64,000 nucleotides of DNA, from the IMG/VR virus record IMGVR_UViG_3300036884_000495, positions 32,001 through 96,000 of that record, one strand, 5' to 3'. This document shows, one piece after another, positions 38,924 through 55,497 of the stretch. Origin of the DNA: a virus. The position numbers were made by a program, and so were the translations under genes. The notes under the pieces were generated by a model. The model made no database searches and had not been told where the DNA came from. It saw only the letters and a list, made by a program, of their open reading frames with translations. Position 1 is the stretch's first letter. Every line of letters begins with the position of its first letter.

Positions 38924-40149
38924 GCCACGAACCTTGTCATCTTCATTACGTTTAGCTTGGCGCAGATATCCATGCAGAGTTCTTCTACTCGGCTATCTGG
39001 GTGCTGCAGGTTGAAGCCCGCATACAGGAGCGTCTTCAGCGGTTTCATTGCGATGTCGGCATAGCCGACGTTCACCACGCGCAGGAGCAGTTCATAGCAG
39101 CGGATAGCGAGGTCAAGCCGTTCTTGTTCTGGAGCTTGCGTGGCATAGGTTGCGCACGAGGGTAGAACAACGTGCAAGATATCCAGCTGCTTGGGGATAG
39201 GCCATTCTGTCGCGTGAAGGACGTCGCGAGGATGCGGCAGGTTGAACTTCTTGACGAAGGTTGCCCACTCTGCGGCGATGCCCTTACCTACAAGGCCCGC
39301 CACAACGTCTGTTTGTACGGTTTGATCGAAGCCTAGGCAACGGGCGGTAGTGACGCCGTTGATAGCTTGGTGCCAGGTGCGTGGAGAGGGCCACGCCTTC
39401 GATGCGCGCGGGTCGCCGGATTCCGGCTGATCGAAGAACTTCGAGTGCGTCTGCTCCTTTCCATCCTCGTCTTTTTCGATGATGACCCCACCCGCCGCCT
39501 CGAGGAACATACCCGTCAGCGCTAGTACGGCGCCATAGTGTGCACGCCATTGATCCTTAACGATACTTTCTGCATCGAGTGCGTTTGGCACGCCGGGGTC
39601 ATCGAGATCTGCCATGTACTCCATCCACTGCCGCAACGTGGGCGGCGGGTAGTCGAAGTGGCACACGCGGTTTGCCATGGGCGTCTCGAGGTCGCGACCA
39701 TTGGCGGCAACATCAGCCGGGTTCATTGCGAGGATGATGCGTACGCCAGGAGGAAGAACGTACTCACCGATGGTGCGTTCATTCACGAACGATAATAAAG
39801 CCGCCTGGGTGGCAGGCGACGCAGAAGAGATTTCATCCAAGTAGAGGACAGACTTCTCGGCATCGATGGCGGAGCGTACTTGCTGTAGCGCGCACTCGAG
39901 TGAGAAGCCGTTTGGACCCATCACAGGGAAGCCACCAATATGCTCGGGCGCTTTGGTAGCTACGAAAATAGGGAAGATAGGCAGCCCCATCAGCCTACTT
40001 AGCTGGCGAATACGTGCGCTCTTTGCGATACCAGACCCTCCGATGACATTGAGGTTGATGCCCCAAGGGGTGGGCTGCATAGGGGCGCCAGGGCCATTGC
40101 CCAGAGGCGTGCTCAGACAAACGACGGCTATTGATTCGAAACGATCCAT
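38920..40149 (-). CDS. MoxR-like AAA+ ATPase
   Basis: GGSGIAKS, LYLDEIS, Q-AALL, AMNP, MANRVCH and PSPRTW. Coupled to the vWA gene. Confidence 0.88.
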   Translation of the reverse strand: MDRFESIAVVCLSTPLGNGPGAPMQPTPWGINLNVIGGSGIAKSARIRQLSRLMGLPIFPIFVATKAPEHIGGFPVMGPNGFSLECALQQVRSAIDAEKSVLYLDEISSASPATQAALLSFVNERTIGEYVLPPGVRIILAMNPADVAANGRDLETPMANRVCHFDYPPPTLRQWMEYMADLDDPGVPNALDAESIVKDQWRAHYGAVLALTGMFLEAAGGVIIEKDEDGKEQTHSKFFDQPESGDPRASKAWPSPRTWHQAINGVTTARCLGFDQTVQTDVVAGLVGKGIAAEWATFVKKFNLPHPRDVLHATEWPIPKQLDILHVVLPSCATYATQAPEQERLDLAIRCYELLLRVVNVGYADIAMKPLKTLLYAGFNLQHPDSRVEELCMDICAKLNVMKMTRFVA

Positions 40150-40151
40150 AA

Positions 40152-40472
40152 CTACTTTCCTTCAGCAAAAGCACGGACCTCAGCGCAATGTTCTGCACTG
40201 AGAGCCGTGACAACACGCCCATCTTTTATGAGCAGGTAGCCCTCTTTCCCACCCAGGGAAAAGGGTACGTGTAAGCCGCCGGGTGCGTGCACCGCGGTGT
40301 GCGCCTGTTCAGCGGCTTCGATAGCCATAGCTATTTGTTCGACAAGCGCCCTCTCGCCAAGTGAAGAAGCGCCTGGCCAGCGCTCCTTCACTCGCGAGAG
40401 TGTGTGTGGGGTGACGTAGTGTTTACCCAGACCCATGCCCGTCCTCAAGATGCTGCCAAGTAATCTTCTCAA
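40152..40472 (-). CDS. Hypothetical protein (start may be 40436)
   Basis: Short ORF in operon with the motif VTPHTLSRVKERW. Confidence 0.55.
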   Translation of the reverse strand: MRRLLGSILRTGMGLGKHYVTPHTLSRVKERWPGASSLGERALVEQIAMAIEAAEQAHTAVHAPGGLHVPFSLGGKEGYLLIKDGRVVTALSAEHCAEVRAFAEGK

Positions 40473-40944
40473 TGAGATGGTCTGTGATTACGTGTGTACA
40501 CTCCATGCAGTACATGCCTACAGGCGTGCCACGGATTGGGTCCCACTCTAGGGCCGGAGCACCACTGGGCGCTCTGTCCGAGAGAACAAGTACGCCTTGT
40601 TCGGCGGTGCTGACGCATTCCTCATAGTCAATAGGCGCTCTGCAGACGTCGCAGTACGCGACACACGCGGCCCCGCCTTCTACGAAAGGCACGTCCTTCT
40701 GCTCCCGTGCGTCCCGCAGGTCTCTCTCCGCGTCCTCCCAGCACTGTTCATGGATCCAGTGGGGTGCCCACAAACGCACCCCTTTGCTGGTCAGGATATC
40801 GTTCAGAATGAGCACGCCGTCATACCTTGTGGCTTCCTTTATCTGGTAAATCACAAGAGGCACGTGTCCGCACAAGATCTCCTCACAGCGCACGCACTGG
40901 AGGCTGTTGCCGTAAATAGCCCGAGTAACTAACGCCTCCTGCAC
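40423..40944 (-). CDS. Cys-rich hypothetical protein
   Basis: CVRC, HEQC, CDVC and CMEC. Likely GTG start overlapping the upstream stop. Confidence 0.55.
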   Translation of the reverse strand: MQEALVTRAIYGNSLQCVRCEEILCGHVPLVIYQIKEATRYDGVLILNDILTSKGVRLWAPHWIHEQCWEDAERDLRDAREQKDVPFVEGGAACVAYCDVCRAPIDYEECVSTAEQGVLVLSDRAPSGAPALEWDPIRGTPVGMYCMECTHVITDHLIEKITWQHLEDGHGSG

Positions 40945-41543
40945 TAGTTCGGATAGCCGACTTGTGGTAGTTGTTCCCAATCGATTTGCTCCTTGTGGTA
41001 CTGCGACCACCGTCTGCACATTGTTGTAAAGCGCGAGTCTGGTCCGAGCCGTGTCTCCGGCGCGACGTCCTCCACCATCTTTTCTAGAAGCAGGAAGTCC
41101 CTGCCGTCCGTGTGTACGTAGCGCGGGATATCCAACGGAGGTAACGGGTTGTACCAGTACCACCCGTTGTCCGCCCACCGGTAGGTAAGCTCCCGCAGAT
41201 ACAAGTCGTCTTCCAGGTCTTCCTCATCGACACGTAGTCCTTCCCAGCCAGCGTTGTAATCCCCTATCTCTGGGTAAGATTTCATCGTCGGTTCGTGAAG
41301 CGCGCCAGGCTTCACTTGTCCGCGCAGCAGATCAAAGTCGCGGGTGCTCAGAAAGGTCACGACGCCGCGGTCGTCGAAAGCTCGAAGGCGTATAGACTGT
41401 GTGTCTTTCGTGGGGCACAGTTCGTAGTTCACCTTCCAGATACGGTTCTTCTTTATGGGATCGGGGAACACTTTACCCACGTACCCAGACGCGTAGAGGA
41501 GCATCCGCGTTCCCGGATGCACCTCGAGATTACCGAGTGCCAT
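40944..41543 (-). CDS. Hypothetical protein
   Basis: ORF-track entry 40944..41609, with the start uncertain (MALGNL at 41543). Confidence 0.55.
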   Translation of the reverse strand: MALGNLEVHPGTRMLLYASGYVGKVFPDPIKKNRIWKVNYELCPTKDTQSIRLRAFDDRGVVTFLSTRDFDLLRGQVKPGALHEPTMKSYPEIGDYNAGWEGLRVDEEDLEDDLYLRELTYRWADNGWYWYNPLPPLDIPRYVHTDGRDFLLLEKMVEDVAPETRLGPDSRFTTMCRRWSQYHKEQIDWEQLPQVGYPN

Positions 41544-41636
41544 GGGCGGCCCCCTGTGGTGAAGAGCGTACGTAGTCCATGCACCACCAGGCGATTCCCT
41601 GGAGCACACCGACTACGAGCCCGATTAGGAAGAAGC

Positions 41637-41747
41637 TCACTGCTTCTCGGTCTCCTCGTCCTGCTCTTGCGGCGAAGGCTCGTCCTGTGTGGCATCTGCA
41701 TCGAATGTCATGTACAAGTCTGCTACGGCATCTGCGAACGTGGGCAT
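41637..41747 (-). CDS. 36-aa acidic micro-protein (not in the ORF track)
   Basis: ACAGGAGAACACA-ATG, translating to MPTFADAVADLYMTFDADATQDEPSPQEQDEETEKQ*. First ORF after a GGCATAA motif. Confidence 0.55.
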   Translation of the reverse strand: MPTFADAVADLYMTFDADATQDEPSPQEQDEETEKQ

Positions 41748-41816
41748 TGTGTTCTCCTGTGGAATAGATTGCGTGTGGTGTCCGTCATTATTGTTATGCC
41801 TGCTACGTGGTCTTTC

Positions 41817-41845
41817 TTGTAGATAGAACCCTATCGAGGTACGCT
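41817..41845 (+). promoter_or_regulatory. Sigma70-like promoter for the RNA polymerase gene (probably leaderless mRNA)
   Basis: TTGTAG-17 nt-TACGCT, ending 8 nt before ATG 41854, with no Shine-Dalgarno in between. Confidence 0.5.
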
Positions 41846-41853
41846 ATGCAGAC

Positions 41854-44800
41854 ATGGCCTATCTGGACCCAAAGCAGGCGTTTGCGGATCTGAAGACTAA
41901 CGTTCTTGAGGGGCTCGAGGCACACTTCCCGATTACCGGTACGAAGCAGAGCGTGCACCTCGAGGGGCTTGATGTGCGCGAGAACAAGCACGATGTGGGC
42001 GACCTGCAGGCGCAGCACCAGACGAAACTTGACGGGGGTTCGTGGGGCGCTCCGGTGTACGGCACGCTGGCCCTGAAGAACAACGAGACGGGGGCCGTCA
42101 TAGATCGCAAGACGATCAAGTTGGCTGACCTGCCGCAGATGACGCAACGACACAGCTATATCGTGGACGGGCAGGAGTACCAAGTCGACAGCCAGTGGCG
42201 CCTGAAGCAGGGTGCGTATACCCGCCGGCGAGATAATGGGCAGTTGGAGACGCAGTTCAACACCCTTGGCAAGAAGGGATTCGACATCACGTTCAACCCA
42301 GAGAACAAAGTGTTCTCCATGACCCGGGGGTCTTCTGAGAACATCCCGGTGTACACGCTAATGAAACACCTTGGGGTAGACGACACCTCCTTGGAGAAGT
42401 CCTGGGGCAAGGACATACTCGATGCGAATAAGAGCGCACGCGGCGTGAACACGGCCCTCGATCGCTTCTACAAGGCGGATAAGAAGAGGGCGCCCGCGAC
42501 GCCAGACGAAGCAAAGCAGCACTTCATCGACTCCATGCTGGGGGCAAAGCTGCGCCCGGACTCCACAGAGATCACGCTAGGAAAGCCGTATACGCACGTG
42601 AACGGGGACGTGTTCCATGCCGCTACGACGAAGATGATCGGCGTGCAGCGCGGCGACATCCCAGAGGACCAGCGAGACAGCTTGGTGTTCAAAGACCTGC
42701 GCACGGTGGCTGACATCGCGAAGGATCAACTGACAAACTTCAATACGGTGTCCGCGATGAAGAAGCGCGTAGGGCGCAAGATCAATACGGCGACGAGCGT
42801 CCGCGAAGTCGTGCGCAGTGACATGCTCTCGGCACCTGTTCGGTCCGCCTTCACGGGCAACTCCCTCTCACGCGTCGCAGACCAAGTGAATCCCGTGGAG
42901 ATGATCACCTCCAGCTTCCAGACCACCATCACAGGCCCCGGCGGCATTCAAAGCGACCATCAGATCAGCGAGACGGCAAAGTTGATCTCACCCAGCCACA
43001 TCGGGTTTCTTGACCCTGCCCACACCCCGGAAGGGTGCTTCGATGAGTGTACGGAGGTTTTCACGTCTAGTGGCTGGGTGCCCTGGCCCTCGGTTACGCA
43101 AGCTACGTACTTCGCCTGTCTCGTAGATGATCGCTTGGAATTCCACCTCTCGTCGGAACTACAGGACTACGAATACTCCGGCAGGATGTACGGTTTACGT
43201 AAACCGGGCTTTGAGTACCTTGTGACGCCTAACCATCGTATGCTTTGCAGGCCCTTGGATGACGGCACTGTTTACCGTGTCGTGCGCGCTGACGAGATGC
43301 ATGAAAAACCACGCTTCTTCAAAGCAGGACATGAGCCGTACGTTGGGCAGAATGCTGCGCGCTACGCGCTGCCATACGTGCCCGGTAATAACAGCAGCAA
43401 GAATGTAGCGGACGTCGACTTCGGGGACTGGGCCGAGTTCGTAGGGTGGTTTTTGTCAGAAGGCAGCTGTCGCTACGAGGAGAGCAGCAGTGCGTATATG
43501 ATAAAAGTGTTTCAGAGCGAGATCAACACCGCTTGCTGCCGTCGTATTGAGGCCCTGTTAGACCGCCTAGGCTTTACGTGGTGCCTGTCTGAAAGAGAAC
43601 ACGGACGAAACGTCTACACGGTCGCCACTAAGCAACTCGCATGGTACATGCGGCAGCTGGGTACAGGCCCCTTCGACAAGCATATGCTTCCAGAGATGCA
43701 TGACTGGCCGGTGCACGCGCGCTACCGCTTGATGGAGTCGCTGATGCTCGGCGATGGCCGTCTAAACCACACGCATAAAAAGGCTAAGCAGCAAGGCTAC
43801 GCGTACACCACAACGAGCCCCGCACTCGCCCTAGACGTCGAGCGTGTGATCATATCGTTAGGCTGGGCGGCGCACATTTGTCGCTATGAAGACAAGCGCG
43901 AAGAACGCTACAAGGACGTTTACGAGGTACGGCTTCTTCTACATAAGGAGTCGTCAACAAGAATGAGCTCGAGACGTCGTGGGGAGTGCCCCTATTACAC
44001 GCTCGATTACAGCGGACGGGTGTACTGCGCCACGGTACCTGGGTCGTTTTTGTACGTGCGTAGAAACGGCAAGCACCCCATCTGGCTCGGCAACAGTAAG
44101 ACGGGAGTAACCTCCCATTTACCGCTATTCGTGACTAAAGAGGGGAACAGGCCAATGATTCCTGTCTTCAACCTCAAGACGCAGCAGATGGATCGCATCG
44201 ACCCTGTGACCTTCCACAACTCGAAGGTGGTGATGCCTGACCAGGTAACTTGGGACAAGAACAAGCCTACGGCGGTGGCGAATACGATTACCATCTCAAG
44301 CAAGGGCAATGAGCTGGCCGACGGTACGCTAAAGGGGTCGGACTACGTGATGCGCCACCCCAGTCAGCTATTCAGCCTGACCACAAACCTAATCCCCTTC
44401 TTGAACAACAACTCGGGCAACCGCGTAAGCTACGCAACCCACCACATCGAACAGGCGATCAGCCTTCACGATCGCGATGCGCCGCTTGTGCAGGTGGGCA
44501 CGGGCCGCCAAGACGGCATCAAGACCTTCGAGGATCTTGTGGGCAGGCAGTCTGCGCACACCTCGCCTACCGCCGGCACAGTCACCGCCATCACCGCCAA
44601 CCACATCATGGTGACGGGTAAGGATGGCGAGAAGAAGATAGGCATCTACAACAACTTCCCCCTCAACGACCCGAAGTCGGTGCTTCACAGCACGCCGGTG
44701 GTGAAGGTGGGCGACCAAGTAACCGCAGGGCAGCTCGTCGCCGATAACAACTTCACGCGCAATGGCACTCTCGCTCTAGGGAAAAACTTGCGTGTCGCCT

Positions 44801-47800
44801 TTGTTCCGTTGAAGGGCTACAACTTCGAAGACGGCGTTGTTATCAGCGAGACCGGCGCGCAGAAGATGTCGAGCGAGCATATGCACAAGCCCTCCACTAT
44901 CCTTGGCCCTGGCACCATCACAGGCCTGGATAAGTACAAGGCGCTGCACCCTACCGGCTTCGAGAGGGATCAACTCGCGAAGCTAGGGGACGACGGTATC
45001 GTGCGCATTGGGCAGATCGTACAACCCGGGGATCCGCTCGTTGTGGCGTCGAAGCCGTATGAGTCCAAGGGGTCGATGTCCCTCTCCAGGATCCGCAAGA
45101 GTCTCAGCGCGCAGAACATGGATGCCAGCTTAGCGTGGAAGACCGACCACCCCGGCGAGGTGGTAGGCGTGCATCAGGATGACAAGGGCAACGTCACGGT
45201 CCACGTGAAGACGATTGAACCGATGCAGGTTGGGGACAAGATTGCAGGCAGGTACGGCAACAAAGGTATTATTACTGCCGTGGTACCAGACCATGAGATG
45301 CCGCATACAATCGATGACAAGGGCGTGAAGTCCCCGATTGAAATGGCGCTCAATCCCTGTTACGACGACCAGACAGAATTTCTGACGAAGCGTGGGTGGG
45401 TGCTGGGTAAAGACCTGCAAGACCATGACTTCCTGGGTACTGTGAACCCGCAGACTTTCTGCTTGGAGTACCAGCGCCCCGTAGAAGGCATCTCTAGGCA
45501 GCAGTACAAGGGAAAAATGTACTTCTTGCAGAACAGGGAGCTGGAGCTGTGTGTGACGCCTAACCACAGGAACTTTGTGGCGACACGTTGTACCGACGCT
45601 CTTGGCGTCCTTGACCTCGAGTACCTGCCGGAGGGTTTATTTAGACTAGAAGAAGCCCGTAGTCATTTCGGGAGAGCACGCAGATTCCTAAAGACCGCAC
45701 GTTGGGCGGGTGTGGACCCCGGCGTTATTGTAATTCGCGCTGGCACTCAACGACTCACCGGCCCGAAGCAGAGTAGCCTTACTATTGCATCCGCAGACTT
45801 CGCGGAATTTATGGGTTGGTACATCTCTGAGGGTTATTGCTCATACAACAAAGCTTCAGGGGCATACGGAATCAATATATGTCAGGCACGCGCGGCCAAC
45901 CCTAAGAAGCACGCAAAGATCGAGGGACTGCTTATGCGTCTTGGGCTGGCGTATACGGTCCGCGATACCGAGTTCCAGGTAAGGCACAAGGGGTTGTACG
46001 AATACCTTAGGCCGCTAGGTCTGTGCGCAGATAAGTACATTCCTGAGGATATACAGCAGCTACCCCCTGCGCTTCTGCGCATCTTCTTGGATACGTACCT
46101 AGCTGGCGACGGGAATACTAGGTATGAACCGGCACGTGGGCACTACAACACACGACGGTTCACAACAACGTCGTCTCGTCTTGTAGACGACCTGCAGATT
46201 GTGGCGCTAAAACTGGGCTTAGTAGTAAACAAGCACAAGCCTACAACCAGGAAGAACAAGCCGGGTGCTCCCTGTTTCGATAGTGCAGTAGGTTCTAGGA
46301 ACAAAGCGCCCTGGGCTAATTGGTCGGAGGATACGAAGGAGAACCAAGTAGAGGCGTGGGTCGACTACTCTGGCGTTGTCTACTGCGCGGAGGTTCCAAA
46401 CCACACGCTTGTTACACGTCGTGGGGGCACTGTAGTTGTATCTGGCAACTGTGGGATTCCAGGCCGAATGAATATGGGGCAGGTGCTGGAAACAGCCGCC
46501 GCCAAGATCGCCCATAAGACTGGGCAGACTTACATCGTGAACAACTTCGAGCACGGTGTGGATGCCTTGGACAAGGTCAAGAAAGAACTCAAGGCGCACG
46601 GCCTGTCTGACACCGAGGTATTGCACGATCCCATGAGCGGACAAGAGCTCGGACCCGCACTGGTGGGCATGCAGCACATACTCAAACTGAACTTCCAGAT
46701 CGACAAGAAGGTTTCCACGCGTTCGGGCATGCCACTTGATGGTGCCGAGGCGGAGCACTACGACGCGGATACGCTCATTCCTTCTGGCGGCGGCAAGACC
46801 GGCGGGCAGTCCATGGGTAACCTTGGGATGTATTCGATGCTGGCACATGGGGCGACCGCGAACATCCGCGAGATGCAGACGTGGAAGTCAGAAGGTGCCG
46901 ATCGCAAAGAGCGCTGGGACTCTCCCCACCACGAAATCTGGAACGCGATTCAGAACGGGGACATCCCCCCTCCGCCTAAGAAGACCTTCGCCTTTCAGAA
47001 GTTCGAGGACACGCTACGCGCCGCGGGTATCGACGTGCAGAAGAAGGGGCACCAGATGCTCCTCACGCCTCTTACCAACCAGCAGGTTCTGAAGATGTCC
47101 AAAGGGGAGCTTCCCGAACCCGGGTATGTGACCTTTGCGAAGCCCGATGCCAATGGCGAACCCACTACACGTAAGGGTGGCTTGTTCGACCCTGTCCTCA
47201 CTGGCGGGCACGGCGGAAAGAACTGGACGCACATCGCGCTCCCAGAACCCGTCCCGAACCCCGTGTTCGAGAATGCCATCCAGCGCATCACAGGGCTGAC
47301 GAAGAAAGAGTACACCGACGTCACCACCGGCGAGAAGGCTATCAGCAAGGACACTGGCAAGATCGTTCCCCTTGGCACCAAGAATGCCATCGCAGGCGGT
47401 GCAGGTATCGCGCACATCCTCGGGCAGATGGATGTGAAGGAGGAACTCGCGAAGGCGCAGAAGTCTCTCGATTCGTACAACATCCCTGACAACATCGCCC
47501 ATAGAGAGGGCACGCAGGAGATCGATAAGCGCTCGAAGAAGGTTCGCTACCTGACCGCACTCGACAACGCCGGCATCCATCCGAAGGACGCTTACGTGCT
47601 GACGAACCTGCCGGTCATTCCGCCGTTGATGCGCCCCTCATCATTCCTTCCAAGTGGAGACGTCAATCACGCGGACGTCAACCAACTCTACGCGGCGATC
47701 GGTGACATCTCCGGGGCGATGAAGGACAAGAACTACAAGTTCCTGAGTGACCACGACAAGAAGATAGACCGCGCCAACATGTACGACGGCGTGAAGGCGC

Positions 47801-50487
47801 TCATGGGCGTGGGTGAGAACTGGGGCGACCGCGGGAAGCAACCCAAAGGACTCCTTCTTCAAATCGCGGGGAGTAGCCCGAAGGAGGGCTTCTTCCAAAG
47901 TACGCTGCTCTCACGTCGCCAAGACATGACGATGCGCGGGACGATCACCCCGGAGCCCGGACTCGGTCTCGATAGCGTGGGCCTGCCGGAGAAGAAGGCG
48001 CTCGACTTGTTCCGCCCCTTCGTCGTCAAGAAGCTGATTGATATGGGTGCTGCAAACACGCCACGCGAAGCACACACGCTCTTGGCGGAGCCGGGCAAGA
48101 AAGACCCGATGGTCTACAAGGCCCTCGACCACGTGATGGCGGAGCGGCCTGTGCTCCTCAAGCGCGACCCGTCGCTGCATAAGCATAGCGTCCAAGCGTT
48201 CTGGTCCCAACGTGTAGGTGGAAAGGCGATACAGATACACCCCCTGGTTACAGGTGGGTTCGGGGCGGACTTTGATGGGGACAGTATGGCTGTGTATGTC
48301 CCAATCGGGAAGGAAGCCGTAGAAGAAGCGAAGAAAATGCTGCCCTCGGCGAACATCTATAACGAGGCGAGCGGCAAGGTGATGTACCAACCGACGTTGG
48401 AGTCAAGTCTTGGCCTATTCAAGTTATCGCGCGTCACGGGAGATGGCAAGCAGAAGTTCGACTCGCATGCGGACCTGCTCAAGGCTGCGCAGACGGGCGC
48501 ACTAAAGGTTACTGACAAGGCCGAGGTGAACGGTAAGGCGACAACTGCAGGGCGCATCATGTTGGCCGCTGCGCTGCCTGATGCCTTCCACACGGACATC
48601 ATGCACAACCTCGATATGCGCCTGAATAAGAAGGGCGTCGACAAGCTGTATACGACGGTGGCGAAGGAGCACACGCACGACTTCGCGGATGTCTCCTCGA
48701 GGTTGATGCGCCTGGGATACGACGCCTCCTTCGGCGCCATCAAGATTCAGAACCCCAATACGGCGGGAACCGCGGGCGCTGTGGAGAAGGAAGGCGAGAA
48801 CCCGAAGGGGCACGTACAGTTCCTGGCTATGGGAACGCACTCCCTTAGTTTGGCCGACTTCACTCCAGACAAGGCGACGCGAGACCCTATCGTGGCGGCT
48901 ACGCAGACGCAGGTAAACAGCATCAACGCGCGCAGGGACATCGGAGACAAAGAGAAGGAGCATCACGTGAAGGAGGCGTGGTTCGACGCCACAGAGAAGA
49001 TGGTGAAGGAGCACGATGCCAAGATGGAGAAGCAGCCAAACAACCTGTTCCTCATGCAGCAGGCCGGCGTGAAGCCCTCCCCAGACCAGTACAGGCAGCT
49101 GCGCCTCGCGCCCATGCTGATGGTTGACAGCCTGAACAAAGTCATCGCCAAGCCTGTGACCAAGAGTTACTCCGAGGGCCTCGATGTGGGCTCCTACTGG
49201 TCTCAGATGTCTGGTGCCCGGCGCGGCTCGGTGCTCAAGGTGCAAGAAGTGCAGGAGCCTGGGTACTTCACCAAGCAGCTGATGAACACCACCATGGGCA
49301 TACAAGTCACGACGCCCGACTGCGGGACCTCGCAAGGTTTGCACATACCCGTGCATTCGCAGGACATCTTCGATCGCACGTTGGCGCAGGACCACACGTT
49401 CGGCGGCGTGACCTATGCGAAGGATTCCATCATCACCCCACAGGTGGCATCAGCCATCAAGTCGGCAGACAAGAATGCCACGCTGCTCGTCCGATCCACG
49501 ATGAAGTGTGAGCATGGCAACGGCGTTTGCCAGAAGTGCGCAGGACTTTCCCCCACAGGGCAGCACTACGACATCGGCACGAACGTGGGCGTACTTGCTA
49601 CGCAAGCCCTCGGTGAACGCGCCACGCAACTCACACTCAAAGCCTTTCACTCAGGAGGCCTCGCCACGCGCGGGCCCAGTATGGTCAACAGCTTCCTTCG
49701 CGTGCAGCAGCTGACGTCGCTGCCGAAGGAGATCCCCAACGCCGCACGATTGGCAGAGAGGGACGGCACCATCGAAAAGATCGAGGAAGATCCCACAGGG
49801 CACATCGCATACATTGGGGGCGTCGCACACCATATCCCCAACGACCAATTCGGTAACCCGTTGTTCAAGCCACCACCCGGTGAGACAGAGACAGAGGGCC
49901 CAGGAGGCCTGAAGTGGGGCGGTATCCAGGTGGGCATGAAGGTAAAGGCGGGGCAGTCTTTGACCGATCCCTCGCGTACGGACATCAATCCCCACGACCT
50001 TTATCGCGTGACGGGTAATATGTCAGAAGTGCAGAACCAGATGGTGACCGAACTCCACGACATCTACGGGCGCGAAGGCGTGCGTAGGCAGAACGTAGAG
50101 ACGGCCATGCGTGGGCTGGGAGACCTCACAAGAGTCGTGGATTCTGGCGACCACGAGCACTTGGTCAAAGGACAGTTCACGTCGAGAGCCGCAGTGCAGG
50201 TGGCGAACAAGGAGCTTGTAGCGAATGGGCTACAGCCGGTGCAGCACACGCCTATACTCAAGGGCATCGAAGTGATGCCGCTCGAAATACAAGAAGACTG
50301 GATGGCGAAGTTGAATCACCAGCGTCTACGTACTAGCCTGCAGGAAAGCGCTTCCCTTGGAGCCGCCTCTAACCTCCACGGCACAAACCCAGTAAGCGGC
50401 ATGGCGTACGGCGCTCAATTCGGCATGACCCAAAAAGATAAGTACGTCCACCCAGAGCTCAAAGACGTGCCGAACTACGCCTACTAA
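41854..50487 (+). CDS. rpoBC: Single-chain DNA-directed RNA polymerase, beta-beta' fusion, with two inteins (about 2160 aa mature)
   Basis: Beta motifs: SHIGFLDPAHTPEG, LIPFL, GYNFEDG, GDKIAGRYGNKG, NP|CGIPGRMNMGQ, GGQSMG. Beta' motifs: LPVIPP.MRP, RDPSLH, GADFDGD, GARRG, GYFTKQL, QALGERATQLTLKAFH. Confidence 0.95.
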   Translation: MAYLDPKQAFADLKTNVLEGLEAHFPITGTKQSVHLEGLDVRENKHDVGDLQAQHQTKLDGGSWGAPVYGTLALKNNETGAVIDRKTIKLADLPQMTQRHSYIVDGQEYQVDSQWRLKQGAYTRRRDNGQLETQFNTLGKKGFDITFNPENKVFSMTRGSSENIPVYTLMKHLGVDDTSLEKSWGKDILDANKSARGVNTALDRFYKADKKRAPATPDEAKQHFIDSMLGAKLRPDSTEITLGKPYTHVNGDVFHAATTKMIGVQRGDIPEDQRDSLVFKDLRTVADIAKDQLTNFNTVSAMKKRVGRKINTATSVREVVRSDMLSAPVRSAFTGNSLSRVADQVNPVEMITSSFQTTITGPGGIQSDHQISETAKLISPSHIGFLDPAHTPEGCFDECTEVFTSSGWVPWPSVTQATYFACLVDDRLEFHLSSELQDYEYSGRMYGLRKPGFEYLVTPNHRMLCRPLDDGTVYRVVRADEMHEKPRFFKAGHEPYVGQNAARYALPYVPGNNSSKNVADVDFGDWAEFVGWFLSEGSCRYEESSSAYMIKVFQSEINTACCRRIEALLDRLGFTWCLSEREHGRNVYTVATKQLAWYMRQLGTGPFDKHMLPEMHDWPVHARYRLMESLMLGDGRLNHTHKKAKQQGYAYTTTSPALALDVERVIISLGWAAHICRYEDKREERYKDVYEVRLLLHKESSTRMSSRRRGECPYYTLDYSGRVYCATVPGSFLYVRRNGKHPIWLGNSKTGVTSHLPLFVTKEGNRPMIPVFNLKTQQMDRIDPVTFHNSKVVMPDQVTWDKNKPTAVANTITISSKGNELADGTLKGSDYVMRHPSQLFSLTTNLIPFLNNNSGNRVSYATHHIEQAISLHDRDAPLVQVGTGRQDGIKTFEDLVGRQSAHTSPTAGTVTAITANHIMVTGKDGEKKIGIYNNFPLNDPKSVLHSTPVVKVGDQVTAGQLVADNNFTRNGTLALGKNLRVAFVPLKGYNFEDGVVISETGAQKMSSEHMHKPSTILGPGTITGLDKYKALHPTGFERDQLAKLGDDGIVRIGQIVQPGDPLVVASKPYESKGSMSLSRIRKSLSAQNMDASLAWKTDHPGEVVGVHQDDKGNVTVHVKTIEPMQVGDKIAGRYGNKGIITAVVPDHEMPHTIDDKGVKSPIEMALNPCYDDQTEFLTKRGWVLGKDLQDHDFLGTVNPQTFCLEYQRPVEGISRQQYKGKMYFLQNRELELCVTPNHRNFVATRCTDALGVLDLEYLPEGLFRLEEARSHFGRARRFLKTARWAGVDPGVIVIRAGTQRLTGPKQSSLTIASADFAEFMGWYISEGYCSYNKASGAYGINICQARAANPKKHAKIEGLLMRLGLAYTVRDTEFQVRHKGLYEYLRPLGLCADKYIPEDIQQLPPALLRIFLDTYLAGDGNTRYEPARGHYNTRRFTTTSSRLVDDLQIVALKLGLVVNKHKPTTRKNKPGAPCFDSAVGSRNKAPWANWSEDTKENQVEAWVDYSGVVYCAEVPNHTLVTRRGGTVVVSGNCGIPGRMNMGQVLETAAAKIAHKTGQTYIVNNFEHGVDALDKVKKELKAHGLSDTEVLHDPMSGQELGPALVGMQHILKLNFQIDKKVSTRSGMPLDGAEAEHYDADTLIPSGGGKTGGQSMGNLGMYSMLAHGATANIREMQTWKSEGADRKERWDSPHHEIWNAIQNGDIPPPPKKTFAFQKFEDTLRAAGIDVQKKGHQMLLTPLTNQQVLKMSKGELPEPGYVTFAKPDANGEPTTRKGGLFDPVLTGGHGGKNWTHIALPEPVPNPVFENAIQRITGLTKKEYTDVTTGEKAISKDTGKIVPLGTKNAIAGGAGIAHILGQMDVKEELAKAQKSLDSYNIPDNIAHREGTQEIDKRSKKVRYLTALDNAGIHPKDAYVLTNLPVIPPLMRPSSFLPSGDVNHADVNQLYAAIGDISGAMKDKNYKFLSDHDKKIDRANMYDGVKALMGVGENWGDRGKQPKGLLLQIAGSSPKEGFFQSTLLSRRQDMTMRGTITPEPGLGLDSVGLPEKKALDLFRPFVVKKLIDMGAANTPREAHTLLAEPGKKDPMVYKALDHVMAERPVLLKRDPSLHKHSVQAFWSQRVGGKAIQIHPLVTGGFGADFDGDSMAVYVPIGKEAVEEAKKMLPSANIYNEASGKVMYQPTLESSLGLFKLSRVTGDGKQKFDSHADLLKAAQTGALKVTDKAEVNGKATTAGRIMLAAALPDAFHTDIMHNLDMRLNKKGVDKLYTTVAKEHTHDFADVSSRLMRLGYDASFGAIKIQNPNTAGTAGAVEKEGENPKGHVQFLAMGTHSLSLADFTPDKATRDPIVAATQTQVNSINARRDIGDKEKEHHVKEAWFDATEKMVKEHDAKMEKQPNNLFLMQQAGVKPSPDQYRQLRLAPMLMVDSLNKVIAKPVTKSYSEGLDVGSYWSQMSGARRGSVLKVQEVQEPGYFTKQLMNTTMGIQVTTPDCGTSQGLHIPVHSQDIFDRTLAQDHTFGGVTYAKDSIITPQVASAIKSADKNATLLVRSTMKCEHGNGVCQKCAGLSPTGQHYDIGTNVGVLATQALGERATQLTLKAFHSGGLATRGPSMVNSFLRVQQLTSLPKEIPNAARLAERDGTIEKIEEDPTGHIAYIGGVAHHIPNDQFGNPLFKPPPGETETEGPGGLKWGGIQVGMKVKAGQSLTDPSRTDINPHDLYRVTGNMSEVQNQMVTELHDIYGREGVRRQNVETAMRGLGDLTRVVDSGDHEHLVKGQFTSRAAVQVANKELVANGLQPVQHTPILKGIEVMPLEIQEDWMAKLNHQRLRTSLQESASLGAASNLHGTNPVSGMAYGAQFGMTQKDKYVHPELKDVPNYAY
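43036..44094 (+). mobile_element. Intein A in the RNAP beta part (353 aa, LAGLIDADG)
   Basis: TPEG|CFDECTEV...VTPNHR...GWFLSEG...LMLGDG...IWLGN|S. Confidence 0.92.
45358..46449 (+). mobile_element. Intein B in the RNAP beta part (364 aa, LAGLIDADG)
   Basis: ALNP|CYDDQTEF...VTPNHR...GWYISEG...YLAGDG...VVSGN|C. Confidence 0.92.
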
Positions 50488-51798
50488 ATGTCCAAGAACA
50501 TCACCAGTCCGAAGACCAACACGAAGTCCCCGATGGAGCGCACAAGCATGCGCACCTCGTGGACGCAACCTGCAGGGGGCACCGCCGCCTTCATCCACGA
50601 GGCGCGGGTTGTGGACTACAACTTGGTGACGTGGACGGTGGACGTGCGCACGCAGTACGACCAGAAGTTCTATCCGAACATCCAGGTGGGCGGCCCGTAC
50701 ATGCACCCGAATCGTGGTGAGGGCTTCTATGCGATGCCGGACATCAACGCCAAGTGCCTGGTGTGCATTCCCAGCGACGGTCCGCCGCCATACATCTTCA
50801 CGTTCATCATGCCGATGGAGACGCCAGAGGATCCGGCGGGCAGCACCGCCACTACTGCGGCAGCCACGACGGCCGCACAGAGCGCAACGGCGCAAGCCGG
50901 AGCAAGCCAAGGTGCTGTGTTCTCCGGTGGGCGTACACGGGCAAAGCCTGGTGACATGGTTTGGAAGGGCCGCGATGGCAACTTCGTAGTCCTACACCGA
51001 GGCGGCGTCCTGCAGATTGGATCAACGGAACTCGCACAACGAATCTACATCCCGCTCGGGAACATCATCACGGACATCAGCCAGAACTACGAGCACCATA
51101 ACTCTGGGGGCTCAATCAACTGGGGGCTGTCTTCCAGCTACACGGACGACAACGCAGAAACGTCCTTCCTCCAGACGTTTCGAACGTTTGTGAACAACGA
51201 CATGGCCGACGTGCGCGTAGCCATAGGCTACGTCCACCAACCGGTGCCGGAGCCGCCGGGCGGAGAGGCGGCGAACAATGCGGGCATGAACATCGGTGTG
51301 GATGCAAATGGGGACGGCACCATCGTCGCCGAGTTTGTGATCGCCCCCGGAGGCTTCACAACCGAATCGGGAGCACCCACAGGGGACGCCGCGAAGCTGT
51401 CGGTCATCCGACTGTTCTTCGACTCGAATGGCGGCGCATTCCTGCGCGCACAAGCGAGCCTGAACGTGCGCGTAGGCAAGAAGCTACGTCTCGCTGTGAA
51501 TGACCTCGTGGTCGAAGCAGACAACAACATCCAGATGTCCGCGAAAGGATCTGCGCGCATAGCGGGTGCCGCCGGCGTACAGATCACAGCGGCTTCTGGT
51601 GCCGTTGTACTCAATGGCGGCGGTTCGCCCGTGGCCGTTGTGGGGTCCGCGGTAGATGTACTTATCTCCATGCCGATCCCAATCAGCGTAATGGTGGGCA
51701 CGACGCCGACGACTGGCGTGATCCTTGGCGGCGCGAAGCTGACAGGGTTTGTAGTGAGCGGATCTCCAACAGTGCTCGCACCCGGACCGGGGGGTTGA
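50488..51798 (+). CDS. Baseplate central spike (gpV/gp5-like OB-fold plus beta-helix, PAAR-like C-terminus)
   Basis: ARVVDYN..TVDV..GEGFYAMP.I.AKCLV, then beta-strand repeats, ending PVAVVGS...GFVVSGSPTVLA. Confidence 0.65.
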   Translation: MSKNITSPKTNTKSPMERTSMRTSWTQPAGGTAAFIHEARVVDYNLVTWTVDVRTQYDQKFYPNIQVGGPYMHPNRGEGFYAMPDINAKCLVCIPSDGPPPYIFTFIMPMETPEDPAGSTATTAAATTAAQSATAQAGASQGAVFSGGRTRAKPGDMVWKGRDGNFVVLHRGGVLQIGSTELAQRIYIPLGNIITDISQNYEHHNSGGSINWGLSSSYTDDNAETSFLQTFRTFVNNDMADVRVAIGYVHQPVPEPPGGEAANNAGMNIGVDANGDGTIVAEFVIAPGGFTTESGAPTGDAAKLSVIRLFFDSNGGAFLRAQASLNVRVGKKLRLAVNDLVVEADNNIQMSAKGSARIAGAAGVQITAASGAVVLNGGGSPVAVVGSAVDVLISMPIPISVMVGTTPTTGVILGGAKLTGFVVSGSPTVLAPGPGG

Positions 51799-51799
51799 T

Positions 51800-52432
51800 A
51801 TGGCAGTAGGTACCCCAAAGAGTGGGACGCTCGGTGCGTTCAACGTGGGTTTGGCTACAAGCGTGGCGACACTGGTGCCTCTGGGCGCGCAGGTGGACGC
51901 GCTCATTGCTGCGGGCATCGGACCCTTTCAAGAAGACCTAAGCGCGCGCTTGAATGCTGCCGTAAGTGCGTCGGCGACTCTGAGTGTCGCAGTAGGGAAT
52001 CCGTTTGCAGGCATTCAATCCGTACTGATGTCGCTGTCGGGCATTCAGCAGGCGCTTCAATTGGCGCTCCAGTACCCCACCCCCACGCTGCAGTACAGCG
52101 AGCAACTCAGTACGCTGATGGCGCTGTCTGGAACACTGGCCGCGGAGTTGGGCGCACTTCAGCAGGTGATACAACAGTCCAACCAGATAAAGACGGCGGC
52201 GCTGCGAGGCGCAGCTGACTTATCCGCAGGCGTCAACGCCGGCCCTGCCTTTTTCTTCGACTTCAATGGTTCGCTAGGAGCAGTGGGTGGCGAGCTTGCT
52301 AGCCTCTGTGTCGGCGGGCTTATTGACGGCACCAATACAATAACCCCAACGCAGCAGGTTTACGGGATCGTGCTTCTGAGCTCCGTACCTTCTGTTCAAA
52401 CCGCACTAAGTGCAATAATCAAGGCACCATGA
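51800..52432 (+). CDS. Hypothetical helical virion protein
   Basis: 210 aa, Ala/Leu/Ser-rich, follows the spike gene. Confidence 0.6.
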   Translation: MAVGTPKSGTLGAFNVGLATSVATLVPLGAQVDALIAAGIGPFQEDLSARLNAAVSASATLSVAVGNPFAGIQSVLMSLSGIQQALQLALQYPTPTLQYSEQLSTLMALSGTLAAELGALQQVIQQSNQIKTAALRGAADLSAGVNAGPAFFFDFNGSLGAVGGELASLCVGGLIDGTNTITPTQQVYGIVLLSSVPSVQTALSAIIKAP

Positions 52433-54534
52433 GCAACGCGCAGCACCTGTTCTTCCAGCCTGATACCGCCTTTGTCGAGAAGACCGCGGGCGAGGTTGAC
52501 CTTCCTGACGATCCAAATCAATGGGCGCAGGTGATTCTCCAAGAACTGTACAAGCAGGTGCCGTACATCACGGACTACCAGCCGCACGTGCAGATGGAGC
52601 GCACCGATGCAGAGCGCGGGTACGGACTCGGACACGTGGAGATCCAGAACCAGACGGAGGCTCCACAAGAGACCCCGCAGGATCAACTGGATGCCGCCGG
52701 TGTTCGTACCGTGCGCATTCCCTTCGTTGTACGCGAGAAGAAGTTGTCGCCGTTCGACCTTTTGATCAACGACACAGGCGCTGTGATTCCTCTCACGGAG
52801 AACCGCCTTCGCCAGGCCCTCTTCCGACCGCAGGCCTTCGACGTCACCAGCCGTACGCCCGGCGACCAAAGCATGATCGGTCAGCTCTATCCTCCGTACC
52901 GTCAGAACTACGGATTCGGCGGTGGCGGTATGGCCATGAACGCCGCAGGCGGCATGGGCATCGGCAAAGTCGGGCATGTAACTGCCTTGGAGCAGTTTCT
53001 CACGCCTAAGACTGCGGCAGCCGCGGCTCCCTGCGCATCTGCTGTAAAGAAGCCGGTGGGTGTGGTGAAGCATGGTTCGATCCTCGAAGCCATTCTTCCG
53101 ACGCTCGATGAGAACGACCGCGCGCGGTTGGTGGACGAAGTCACCAAGCAGGCACAAGCCTTGTTCGCGCGATCCTCTATTGGGTCTTCTCGCTTTCAAG
53201 ATGCCGTGTCGTTGGTGCTTGATGGCGAAGAGAGCGTGAAGAGCGCGGCGTGGGAGCAGTGGCTCAAGGCCGACGTCGTCCAAGTGCAGAAGGTGGCTTC
53301 GGGCTACCGTGTGAAGACGGCAAGCCACCGCTATTGGGATCCGCAAGTATCCGTCGTCGATCGCGGGGATGTGGTCCGCGCATATGGGGCGGAAGTTGCC
53401 CTGAACACCGACCTCACGGGCTGCTGCACGGTTGCAAGCGGCCTCACAAAGATGGCTTCAGAAGAAGCTGTCGTGCCTCCGAGCATCGTCAAGGAACCCG
53501 GCGCTTACAAAGTAATGGATTCCAACGGGCAGGAGCATGTGGGCTACGTAGTGCCGACGCTTATCAGCGCAGGTGACTTCGAGTTGCCTATCTCGCTCTT
53601 CACCAATGGGAGCGTAGTCGCCATTCAGAGTGAGATCTACGGGGTGCCCGCGGGCGATATCAGTCTCCCCTTCGGCCCCATCGGGCATAGCGGCGCGTTC
53701 TACACGATGGGTGGTTCGGGTGTGCGCATGCTGTCGCCCGTGGAGCTGCAGGACTCCATCACGCTCGAGGGCCAACCGCGCACGTACAACGGAACGACCT
53801 TCGAGGGGTCACCCATTCAGATCTCCATCCAAGACAACATCACGGACATCACGCCCGTGTCTGAGGGGCGCGTGCTCATTCCCACCTCGTGGAAGTGGCT
53901 GGCGCTCGATGGTGCGCAACACATTACCCTCGTGAATGGGGACGCAGCGACAGCGTTGCATCCAGAGAACAAGCTCGCCAACGTGTCCGTGATCTCCGAC
54001 GGCATGTCCTTCTCTCTGGAAGGCGTTCCGCTGCAGAAGATTGCGAACGACCAAAAGCGCTTCCTCAACTTGGACGACGCCATGTTCCTGCTCGCAGGAC
54101 TCGGCGTGGACCCGCACTACGGCACGCAGAAGCTTGCAGAAGCCATCGCGTACAAGGCGCCTGCGATCATCAAGATTGCACGCGTTGTGGAACGCAAAGA
54201 GGACCTCTTCGAGAAGGCGATGGACAAGGCCGCAGGAGTCATCGCGTCGGTCGCGGGACTACAGCAGCCACTTCTTCTGAAGGAAGCCGCGAGCTTCCCC
54301 GACCCTCAGATGGTGGACACTGTCCTCAGTCTCGGATTCATCAACCCCGAGAACATCATGACGTTCGTCAGCTACCTGCCCGATCTAGAAGACGCGCAGG
54401 AGAAACTCTGCGAACTTCTATTCGGTGTGCGCCTAGGTTTGTCGAACGTTCCCCAGTCCGCAGTAGAACGCGGCGTGCGTTCTATCGAAGAAGTGATTGA
54501 AGGCCTGAAGATTCTCGGCTTCCAAGGTTCTTGA
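52429..54534 (+). CDS. Putative head-associated protein rich in K-x-A motifs
   Basis: 701 aa containing EKTAG, PKTAA, TKQAQ, VKSAA, QKVAS, VKTAS, TKMAS, NKLAN, QKIAN, QKLAE and LKEAA. Confidence 0.65.
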   Translation: MSNAQHLFFQPDTAFVEKTAGEVDLPDDPNQWAQVILQELYKQVPYITDYQPHVQMERTDAERGYGLGHVEIQNQTEAPQETPQDQLDAAGVRTVRIPFVVREKKLSPFDLLINDTGAVIPLTENRLRQALFRPQAFDVTSRTPGDQSMIGQLYPPYRQNYGFGGGGMAMNAAGGMGIGKVGHVTALEQFLTPKTAAAAAPCASAVKKPVGVVKHGSILEAILPTLDENDRARLVDEVTKQAQALFARSSIGSSRFQDAVSLVLDGEESVKSAAWEQWLKADVVQVQKVASGYRVKTASHRYWDPQVSVVDRGDVVRAYGAEVALNTDLTGCCTVASGLTKMASEEAVVPPSIVKEPGAYKVMDSNGQEHVGYVVPTLISAGDFELPISLFTNGSVVAIQSEIYGVPAGDISLPFGPIGHSGAFYTMGGSGVRMLSPVELQDSITLEGQPRTYNGTTFEGSPIQISIQDNITDITPVSEGRVLIPTSWKWLALDGAQHITLVNGDAATALHPENKLANVSVISDGMSFSLEGVPLQKIANDQKRFLNLDDAMFLLAGLGVDPHYGTQKLAEAIAYKAPAIIKIARVVERKEDLFEKAMDKAAGVIASVAGLQQPLLLKEAASFPDPQMVDTVLSLGFINPENIMTFVSYLPDLEDAQEKLCELLFGVRLGLSNVPQSAVERGVRSIEEVIEGLKILGFQGS

Positions 54535-54567
54535 TCCACAGCGACGTGCATGCGATATGCTCCTTGA

Positions 54568-55497
54568 ATGATCTCAAGGAGCCCCGCCGAGTACTACATA
54601 AAGTACATGATGCTTCTTCCGGCTGCCATGGCAGACGCGGACATCGTGCGCAAGTTGCGCGATCAGCAGCTTGACTACCCTGGTGCGCAGTATCTGAAGC
54701 TACTGCGCGCGTCCCTTACGCCCCCGCAGCCTTTCTACCCCACGGTACAAACGCACGCGCCCTCGTATAGGTTCCTGCAGTACCACCGTGTGCACAAGCT
54801 GTTCTTCCCCGATGAACACATGCACAAAGCAGCGTGGTTACTGCAGCATCCGCGAGGGAAAGAAGTCATCGAGTCGCTTCTACTTACGGCGGAAACCCCC
54901 GAGAAGATTGTGCAGCGACTCGCCTACTTGGGATTTCAGACGGTGACGGAGCAAGCGGTCGCGTACTACAAGCACTTCTTCTTGAACCCGGAGCTTGTGA
55001 GTCCTATGGAGATGGCGGCGTTGATCGTCATCCGCGTGGAGGACATACTGCTTGAAGGGGATGACAGGGAGACGCAGATCCGGTACAAGGCAATGAAAAG
55101 CGCCATGTACTCGGACCCCCGTTACCGCGCCGTGACGTCAGTGAATAAAGAGACGGCCGCCATGGGCCTGCAACTACGCCACGGGGTAACTCCAGATCGT
55201 GTGGGGTTCAGTAAGTTGCTGACGTCCATACAGCAGACAGGGGCGACGGCGGTACTCGAGGCTGTCAACCGAAGGGGGCCCAAGGATGCACAAAACGCAC
55301 GGGACTATATGTCTGTAGTAGATATCGCCTCTCGCACATTGAAAGAGATGGGTGACGGGGATGGGAACTTTAGTAAGGCAATCATAGCCCTCGGTACGGA
55401 CAAGCGCGAGGTGCCTGGCGTTCTGCAGATGACAGAGGGTAACTACACAGACGGCGTGAGTACGGGCACAGGAGAGAAAACAAATGCAAGCAAGTGA
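54568..55497 (+). CDS. Hypothetical protein (possible small terminase by position)
   Basis: 309 aa, helical, upstream of terL. TATGCT lies 6 nt before the ATG (leaderless-like). Confidence 0.6.
   Translation: MISRSPAEYYIKYMMLLPAAMADADIVRKLRDQQLDYPGAQYLKLLRASLTPPQPFYPTVQTHAPSYRFLQYHRVHKLFFPDEHMHKAAWLLQHPRGKEVIESLLLTAETPEKIVQRLAYLGFQTVTEQAVAYYKHFFLNPELVSPMEMAALIVIRVEDILLEGDDRETQIRYKAMKSAMYSDPRYRAVTSVNKETAAMGLQLRHGVTPDRVGFSKLLTSIQQTGATAVLEAVNRRGPKDAQNARDYMSVVDIASRTLKEMGDGDGNFSKAIIALGTDKREVPGVLQMTEGNYTDGVSTGTGEKTNASK

Follow-up and report, generated by a model that had tools for sequence, protein, structure and literature searches.

A beta-beta' RNA polymerase encoded as one chain in a peat phage and its relatives, with two probable inteins in the peat phage

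Fused rpoB and rpoC genes, in which beta and beta' follow one another end to end in one frame, are known in cells from Helicobacter (NCBIfam NF007172; a 2908-aa frame in Helicobacter rodentium) and Wolbachia (NF011417), and their RNA polymerases (RNAPs) retain the zinc ribbon and function together with alpha and omega. Several kinds of phage RNAP have also been described, in papers that are drawn on here in excerpt. In the phiKZ/AR9-type phages, two-barrel RNAPs without alpha and omega are encoded by four or five genes; they occur in two paralogous sets, one of which is packaged, are far more divergent and use no canonical sigma (PMC7824862, PMC9209446). The RNAPs of crAss-like phages, YonO and P23-45 have both barrels in one chain and some of this type are virion-borne (PMC10770324, PMC7481178), but their divergence puts them beyond the reach of the COG0085 and COG0086 models (PMC7481178). 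The mReC lineage of uncultured tailed phages, found in IMG/VR and metagenomes, has beta and beta' proteins that can be aligned with the cellular ones and form a separate clade; fusion is mentioned in the excerpts of that paper for crAssphage only (PMC7481178). In Salmonella phage Arash (Gp206 and Gp216) and the Vibrio phages D69, D181 and D148, one protein comprises beta and, joined directly to it, the N-terminal half of beta'. Gp206 is named 'subunit beta' in the Arash paper, in whose excerpted text the word 'fused' occurs 0 times (PMC10585845). Here we analysed a window of 64,000 bases, positions 32001-96000 of the 117,624-base IMG/VR virus record IMGVR_UViG_3300036884_000495, which is rated 63% complete. 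It contains a single gene for beta and beta' with two intein-like insertions, and we read its product, with a probability of about 0.7, as the functional single-chain RNAP core of a phage, called the peat phage below.

The gene runs without an internal stop over all of its 2877 codons (Table 1). The Pfam domains followed each other in the order Rpb2_3, Rpb2_6 (in two stretches), Rpb1_1, Rpb1_2 and Rpb1_5, with LAGLIDADG_3 in addition. Rpb2_6 was matched with an E-value of 1.1e-44, Rpb1_2 with 3e-22 and Rpb1_5 with 1.2e-14, and Rpb2_3 scored over its cut-off; the Rpb1_1 match stayed below its own (21.1 vs 39.7 bits). When the part behind the second insertion, extein 3, was searched against the PDB, it matched beta' chains over about 980 residues (best 8dy7_D, E 2.5e-90). 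The motifs that a first-pass annotation of the DNA had quoted were found in place: FEDTLRAAGIDV at 47002-47037, LLTPLTNQQ at 47059-47085, GGLFDPVLTGGHGG at 47176-47217, GADFDGD at 48262-48282, DCGTSQG at 49318-49338 and KCEHGNGVCQKC at 49504-49539. Domain order and motifs together bear out its claim that beta and then beta' are encoded in one frame.

For the alignments, the reference was Salmonella beta and beta' from a bacterial contig that is part of the phage collection searched. The C-terminus of beta met beta' at residues ~14-17 onward with a linker of 0 residues, in agreement with the direct junction that had been proposed near 47040. When residues 1-578 of extein 3 were modelled with AlphaFold, the junction was predicted as two beta strands, formed by residues 194-199 and 202-207 of this extein. 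The pLDDT was 76-79 (averages over blocks of 10 residues) from residue 181 to 210 and higher in most blocks from 211 to 470, and the model of this region matched bacterial beta' chains (E 1.6e-14). Neither a stop nor a frameshift, which the first-pass annotation had named as evidence against a fusion, was found at the junction, and contigs of two other sequencing runs crossed it. The contig of run X2 covered 43823-48022 with 0 differing letters and that of run X3 covered 46161-48723 with 1, bridging intein 2 and/or the junction with no indels or joints. Because these independent assemblies bridge the junction without indels, an assembly artefact is ruled out as the source of the fusion.

The four-cysteine zinc ribbon (beta' ~64-99) is replaced in the alignment by LTGGHGGKNW, and aa 1729-1900 of the precursor contain 0 cysteines. 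The site lacked cysteine in every aligned relative, as it did in 106 of 109 close relatives with the flanking motif. The proposed deletion of the N-terminal zinc finger of beta' was confirmed in this way, a short cysteine-free loop standing in its place, and the second zinc site was retained with all four cysteines, also as proposed. In total the chain is about 590 aa shorter than that of Salmonella/E. coli. The larger gaps against Salmonella fell on beta 215-296, 317-355 and 947-1049 and on beta' 945-1092, which we take to be inserts specific to the enterobacterial lineage; smaller gaps fell on the C-terminal tail of beta' (1390-1407) and on beta 1126-1141 and 1160-1195. Of the earlier description of the enzyme as 'minimised', the shorter length stands, but most of the shortfall consists of these presumed enterobacterial inserts, and only the zinc ribbon and short stretches make up the remainder. 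By alignment, the enzyme is a near-minimal bacterial core without the zinc ribbon.

The catalytic loop reads GADFDGD and not NADFDGD, as had been noted. Among 121 close relatives, 17 have GADFDGD and 96 NADFDGD, while 5 have S or T in front of the triad and 3 gave no match; by this count the glycine is a trait of a subclade and not of the whole family. The Mg-binding DFDGD triad, preceded by this Gly, and the equivalent of beta' Arg425 are both present. In E. coli, the exchange N458S lowered sugar selectivity by at most 4-fold, and Arg425 is the main determinant of that selectivity (PMC7862312). Judged from its sequence, the core is very probably active. In cluster I of the rifampicin pocket, E. 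coli Q513, H526, R529 and S531 are aligned to R, S, Q and T of the peat phage RNAP. Presuming that these are the positions of rifampicin resistance, we infer that the enzyme may be insensitive to rifampicin.

Both insertions sit in the most conserved motifs of beta. The first follows HTPEG, and its site was empty in 9/9 aligned family members and in Arash, D69 and Salmonella; the second follows MALNP, where the intein-free relatives have S or A at +1. The nine intein-free family members (~2127-2206 aa), Arash, D69 and Salmonella beta were continuous at aa 394/748 and 1168/1533, and in tblastx G002, the closest large relative, gave the same boundary for the first insertion. LAGLIDADG_3 was matched over the Pfam cut-off of 22.5 bits in both, with 26.5 bits in the first and 34.3 bits in the second. 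We regard both insertions as very probably real inteins. Their removal leaves 2877-353-364 = 2160 aa, which agrees with the mature length first suggested and is the usual size, since intein-free relatives mostly have 2117-2214 aa. A phage of about 185 kb would accordingly make its RNAP as one precursor chain, from whose beta part the two LAGLIDADG inteins would excise themselves to leave a 2160-aa bacterial-type beta-beta' protein free of the zinc ribbon.

Table 1. Features of the RNAP gene and of the gene behind it, in positions of the window
Feature	Position	Strand	Basis or remark
Fused beta-beta' RNAP precursor, whole gene	41854..50487	+	2877 aa; stop TAA 50485-50487
Extein 1, beta N-terminal part, aa 1-394, ends HTPEG	41854..43035	+	NCBIfam rpoB; boundary from intein-free relatives
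Rifampicin-pocket cluster I equivalent	42865..42933	+	alignment; E. coli numbering = Salmonella row minus 38
Probable intein 1, 353 aa (aa 395-747): Cys first, GN last, then Ser; LAGLIDADG	43036..44094	+	empty site in relatives
Extein 2, beta middle (flap and first half of Rpb2_6), aa 748-1168	44095..45357	+	Pfam, NCBIfam
Stretch aligned to beta flap-tip helix	45076..45120	+	alignment only
Probable intein 2, 364 aa (aa 1169-1532): Cys first, GN last, then Cys; LAGLIDADG	45358..46449	+	empty site in relatives
Extein 3, beta C-terminus (~200 aa) and whole beta' (~1145 aa), aa 1533-2877	46450..50484	+	PDB, NCBIfam
Beta/beta' junction ...AAGIDV-QKKGHQM-LLTPLT..., linker-free, modelled as two beta strands	47002..47085	+	alignment, model
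Site of lost beta' zinc ribbon: GGLFDPVLTGGHGGKNWTHIALPEP, no Cys	47176..47250	+	alignment, relatives
Beta' clamp helices, predicted docking site of sigma region 2	47635..47802	+	alignment; interface residues 395-446 in a relative's complex model
KRDPSLH, equivalent of beta' Arg425 kept	48160..48180	+	alignment; role from PMC7862312
Catalytic loop GADFDGD, three Asp kept, Asn458 to Gly	48262..48282	+	motif search, alignment
Second Zn site DCG...KCEHGNGVCQKC	49318..49539	+	four Cys aligned to beta' C814, C888, C895, C898
436-aa gene, probable tail central spike (gp5/gpV/VgrG-like), not an RNAP subunit	50488..51798	+	Atlas Phage_base_V, Gp5_OB

The family to which the gene belongs is large and comprises 162 or more representative clusters. 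When 231 aa that span the beta/beta' junction were run exhaustively with HMMER against representatives of clusters at 50% identity, 1044 of them reached E<=0.001, 864 reached E<=1e-10 and 162 reached E<=1e-30. Of the 150 that were listed, almost every one was matched over the junction in a single stretch; 63 of the 150 were longer than 2300 aa (for example P0168 with 4739 aa and P0150 with 3719 aa), 46 had 1950-2300 aa and 41 were shorter. Insertions, presumably inteins, therefore seem to be rife in the RNAP gene throughout the family. A word-based search limited to proteins of 1582-5035 aa gave 1440 proteins at E<=1e-10 among 8000 candidates scored, the best 120 of which were 48-76% identical in their best local alignment and came from contigs of up to 200 kb. 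In IMG/VR, 47 related loci were found. The eleven largest of these records have 167-196 kb, ten are rated 99-100% complete and six have direct terminal repeats; those with such repeats, rated complete, measure 177-196 kb. The RNAP frame was open in all 11 of these relatives (2144-3259 aa), and each of the 14 records compared (the peat phage, the 11 relatives, Arash and D69) had one beta' locus. The RNAP of G002 is 72% identical to that of the peat phage, and the relative P0002 is 75% identical across 2154 aligned positions, in which every catalytic and second-zinc-site residue is kept. DNA of the peat phage was found in 20 sequencing runs from 16 studies, all labelled as peat metagenomes; five of them (X1-X5) hold at least half of the sampled words, and one of these five may be the source of the record.

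The position of the family was examined in a quick IQ-TREE analysis of beta' (LG+C20+F+G4 by PMSF; 35 rows, 1061 columns). The rows were 15 family members, Arash, D69, the phages Carin-5 and RHph_TM30, Salmonella and 15 other bacteria, the latter picked with at most five per phylum from loci with full flanks. Six phyla were sampled in this way; Firmicutes, Cyanobacteria and Thermus were left out, and the tree was made without an archaeal or eukaryotic outgroup. The 16 bacterial rows fell on one side of a branch with an SH-aLRT support of 99, and the 15 family rows formed a single clade (support 100) whose stem measures 1.21 changes per column. The Arash pair joined the family with a support of 87, at a node that carries a long-branch warning. 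On this tree, the family lies outside the six sampled bacterial phyla, and the nesting within a host rpoBC clade that the first-pass annotation had considered was not seen. Because the fused Helicobacter gene grouped with the bacteria, the fusion would have arisen separately in Helicobacter and in the family. The family shares the end-to-end order with the fused cellular genes but differs from them in forming a separate clade and in staying far under the NCBIfam equivalog cut-offs, which were missed for rpoC (TIGR02386, 435.6 vs 963.5 bits) and for rpoB (TIGR02013, 48.5-165 per extein vs 801 bits).

In the phage collection, 193 records matched, mostly to the inteins only, and none covered 80% of the query. 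The best were Vibrio phage D69, with 71% of the query covered at 30.0% identity, and Salmonella phage Arash, with 72% at 29.7%; both have beta and the first half of beta' in one gene (1525 and 1527 aa) and the remainder in another (606 and 609 aa). The Arash-type phages resemble the peat family in that beta and beta' meet at the same linker-free junction, the zinc ribbon is lost and the second zinc site kept, the gene lies near a portal and an SNF2 helicase gene, and alpha and omega were not found; they encode a gp10-type sigma, as do relatives of the peat phage. They differ in that their beta' is divided at about E. coli residue 568 into two genes, which stand 2 to 9 genes apart, whereas it is continuous in the peat family. 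Their identity is 25-32%, the catalytic loop is AADYDGD in Arash and D69, there are no inteins at these sites, and the spike-like gene downstream of the peat phage RNAP was unmatched there at E 1e-5.

The mReC capsid proteins detected all match Gp23 (PF07068), and the Pfam-typed terminases are PF03237 (PMC7481178, excerpts). PF07068 was absent from 14/14 records of the family set, Arash and D69 included, and was present in both of 2 phages with separate beta and beta' genes (Carin-5, RHph_TM30). The terminase of the peat phage has PF05876 (GpA_ATPase) as its sole Pfam family at E<=0.001, in place of PF03237. By capsid and terminase, the family does not fit the mReC lineage; some overlap with its contig list is possible. 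From the phiKZ/AR9-type enzymes the peat family differs by its one chain, its one set, its clear matches to Pfam models and the presence in relatives of a sigma-70-family partner.

The RNAP gene stands in a block of particle genes. In the peat phage, the portal gene (29750-36034) is followed by an SNF2 helicase gene (36031-37548), two minus-strand genes, the RNAP gene, the spike-like gene, three unknown genes and the terminase gene (56230-58032). Most of 49 related loci show this order as well (portal in 39, spike-like gene in 43, terminase in 36). A phage origin was borne out by these neighbours and by the assignment of the contig to a virus in IMG/VR. In purified Arash virions, Gp206 was the protein most detected (3516 spectra), ahead of the major capsid protein, and Gp216, the sigma Gp10 and the helicase Gp217 were likewise detected (PMC10585845, excerpts). 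Because the gene sits in the portal-spike-terminase block and the Arash RNAP was detected in virions, the peat phage RNAP would be produced together with the virion proteins and might be carried in the particle, so that phage transcription could begin at the onset of infection. We give packaging even odds. It is also possible, though we doubt it, that the host polymerase reads the early genes and that the phage RNAP is made only after infection for the middle and late genes, in the manner of the phiKZ-type non-virion RNAPs. Such an enzyme would fit the single RNAP locus per genome, since in the phiKZ-type phages each of the two roles requires a set of its own (PMC7824862, excerpts), and the extra sigma-like genes of several relatives could serve either polymerase. 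It agrees less well with the place of the gene among particle genes in a fixed order, with the dominance of the Arash RNAP in the virion preparation and with the count of sigma-70 consensus promoters. These were not enriched around the gene, with 2 at window positions 37000-56900 vs 7.4 +/- 2.5 in shuffles, and none was found upstream of the RNAP gene on its strand. A phage promoter motif was sought in 28 gaps of at least 50 bases (4412 bases, from a crude gene call); no 9- or 10-mer was common to at least four gaps, and the 7- and 8-mers were unconvincing. In the crude gene call, 96% of the record lay inside ORFs.

Omega and alpha were searched for by Pfam in the peat record and 13 related records, and none scored over its cut-off (PF01000 in 0/13, PF01193 in 0/14, PF01192 in 0/14 records), whereas all three were found in each of 14 control genomes. 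The AR9 RNAP works without alpha and omega (PMC9209446, excerpts). We lean slightly towards a single-chain RNAP that would dispense with both. Neither these subunits nor a sigma factor (PF04542, PF04545, PF04539) was found in the whole 117,624-base record, which extends the earlier observation that alpha, omega and sigma are unseen in the window. The earlier suggestion of a non-sigma specificity factor was not supported. Sigma-70 region 3 was matched in 11/14 records (9 over the cut-off) and region 2 in 8/13 related records (5 over the cut-off). The region-3 proteins, of ~230-270 aa, are homologous to Arash Gp10 and show blocks similar to regions 2, 3 and 4, and a family HMM found such a gp10-type sigma in G002 (E 2.1e-38). 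G002 is collinear with the peat record at an offset of ~30 kb. Its sigma gene lies at 7.1-8.1 kb, and the peat record starts at ~31 kb of G002, ~23 kb past this gene. The absence of sigma is probably explained by the fragment (63% complete), which starts downstream of the syntenic position, and the sigma gene of the peat phage would lie in the part of the genome outside the record.

In bacteria, sigma region 4 docks on the beta flap-tip helix, to which a stretch of extein 2 can be aligned. The docking of region 2 was modelled with the pair of G002 itself, consisting of extein-3 residues 1-578 and its 270-aa sigma. The complex scored 0.71, while the best of 3 controls reached 0.34; the mark applied is reached by 58/80 solved complexes and by 2/110 mismatched pairs, counts that hold roughly here since our own alignments were used. 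The runs shared at least 81% of contacts, and the pLDDT of the partner was at least 74. In the modelled interface, the beta' clamp helices faced sigma residues 43-47 and 70-86. Sigma and beta' are a textbook pair, and the pass may reflect a memory of solved holoenzymes. With this qualification the model supports a docking of sigma on the core. We think it rather probable that the RNAP depends on sigma, in which case promoter choice would be made by a phage sigma-70-family protein of the Arash gp10 type docked on the beta' clamp helices.

An enzyme in which the phage chain sits on the host alpha dimer and omega, with a host or phage sigma, and is not self-sufficient, is improbable. The core is of bacterial type, with 435.6 bits in the rpoC model vs 87.2 bits for archaeal A', the search of the 14 records found no phage alpha, and engineered beta-beta' fusions of E. 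coli reportedly still assemble with alpha, all of which would suit such a hybrid. On the other side, the chain is only 27-29% identical to Salmonella beta and beta', the tail of beta' and the two smaller stretches of beta named above are missing, and AR9 shows alpha and omega to be dispensable in a phage enzyme (PMC9209446, excerpts).

Several points weigh against the reading of a functional, self-standing phage RNAP. No Pfam Hint or Intein_splicing domain was matched in either RNAP intein at E<=1, and both inteins end in GN, where HN is usual. Because the Hint domain was undetected and the penultimate residue is Gly instead of His, splicing of the two is put no higher than likely. Asn458 of beta', termed universally conserved (PMC7862312, excerpts), is Gly here. 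Alpha and omega were sought by Pfam models, which a divergent or non-homologous platform, or a host alpha, would escape. No sigma gene was found in the peat record by Pfam, tblastn or the family HMM, so that sigma use rests on the relatives, and one relative rated 99% complete (G008) had neither a region-2 nor a region-3 match by Pfam, the only method used on it. The complex model does not distinguish the phage core from the host core as the partner of sigma. The Arash RNAP is only ~30% identical to that of the peat phage, and the Arash authors allow that abundant proteins are carried over into the virion preparation as contamination (PMC10585845, excerpts). Six short contigs of an RNA-library run (X20) matched the RNAP gene, but they do not show transcription, because RNA libraries may contain DNA.

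That the two insertions and the glycine of the catalytic loop mark a decaying, inactive relic is very improbable: the replaced Asn458, the missing penultimate histidines and the lack of expression evidence would agree with it, but the gene is free of stops over its full length, catalytic and zinc-site residues are kept as in P0002, GADFDGD recurs in relatives, insertions are common in apparently intact genes and this is the sole RNAP locus of the record. Least credible is a recent capture of host rpoBC, or a bacterial contig misfiled as viral, for which the known fusions of Helicobacter and Wolbachia could be cited: the family forms its own long-stemmed clade apart from the bacterial rows, the fused Helicobacter one included, the cellular fused models scored 331 vs a cut-off of 5372 (NF007172) and 256 vs 4632 (NF011417), the best 80 of 597 confirmed bacterial rpoC matches to the 141-aa catalytic core (597/600 stretches confirmed) were all 44-50% identical across many phyla, the neighbours are phage genes, and related records with terminal repeats have 177-196 kb.

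Among the neighbouring genes, the one directly behind the RNAP gene has its ATG right after the RNAP stop and keeps this place in 43/49 related loci. Its model had a pLDDT of 65.7 and its best fold matches were spikes, with weak values (E 1.1e-3, TM 0.12-0.30), which makes the tail spike a weak lead. As a stand-in for alpha or sigma the gene was rejected, since the Atlas and fold leads favour the spike. The ORF upstream of the RNAP gene (41295-41822, 175 aa) was rejected as an accessory subunit; it had no PHROG or Pfam match and a homologue in 0/49 loci, and is probably not a conserved gene. Positions 22478-22684 of the peat record were weakly matched in tblastn by the sigmas of two relatives (E 0.023 and 3.8). 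The matched stretch falls in a 222-aa frame just before a 1370-aa structural gene, has no sigma features and was rejected; the best match of the family sigma HMM on the record (E 0.15) fell on the RNAP itself. A second sigma-like gene was seen beside the gp10 type in G001, G003, G009 and Arash (loci L053, L056, L057, L058), either as an ECF-like form of 193-194 aa that has regions 2 and 4 or as a 380-400-aa form with regions 2, 3 and 4.

The SNF2 helicase (plus strand) is 37.7% identical to Arash Gp217 and was matched in 3/49 related loci; the flanks of the others may not reach it. The two minus-strand genes between helicase and RNAP (37583-40149) are an HNH-endonuclease-family gene (phrog_1314) and an ATPase gene (phrog_1297). 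They are kept in 39 and 41 of the 49 loci, and because of this conservation they are taken as fixed parts of the block and not as stray homing genes. The portal ORF, on the plus strand, has 2094 aa and aligned to the 579-aa Arash portal in four pieces (window positions ~29864-30640, 31949-32038, 33422-33598 and 35120-35464), leaving three insertions of ~1.3-1.5 kb each. Pfam matched LAGLIDADG_3 in two stretches of this ORF, with weak matches to Intein_splicing and Hint_2, and at least the last insertion was missing from G002. Together with the RNAP gene, five inteins in two genes are likely, three of them in the portal. The ORF 60268-63078 (plus strand, 936 aa) has LAGLIDADG_3 at aa 329-398 and a homologue in 1/49 related loci; it may be an intein-bearing gene or a fusion with a free-standing endonuclease.

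In the literature searched, with subscription journals and supplements outside the search, no description of a fused bacterial-type phage RNAP of this kind was found. The family is apparently undescribed and represents a further form of known kinds, the multisubunit-type RNAPs of phages and fused rpoBC. Two natural experiments on elements hitherto studied only by mutagenesis are seen here: the zinc ribbon has been lost, and Asn458 has been replaced in some members of the family. Cellular-type RNAPs are thought to require an alpha-like platform and omega for their assembly. It is conceivable, if on balance unlikely, that here the beta-beta' chain and a small sigma are self-sufficient without alpha, omega or zinc ribbon, are packaged inside the capsid and injected along with the DNA, and that the host polymerase is never needed by these phages of about 185 kb. 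If true, the enzyme would correspond, among those of bacterial type, to the virion polymerase of N4 and would be the simplest RNAP holoenzyme of the cellular type found in nature; a single beta-beta' chain with a small sigma would offer structural work a compact object and might serve as a tool for orthogonal transcription.

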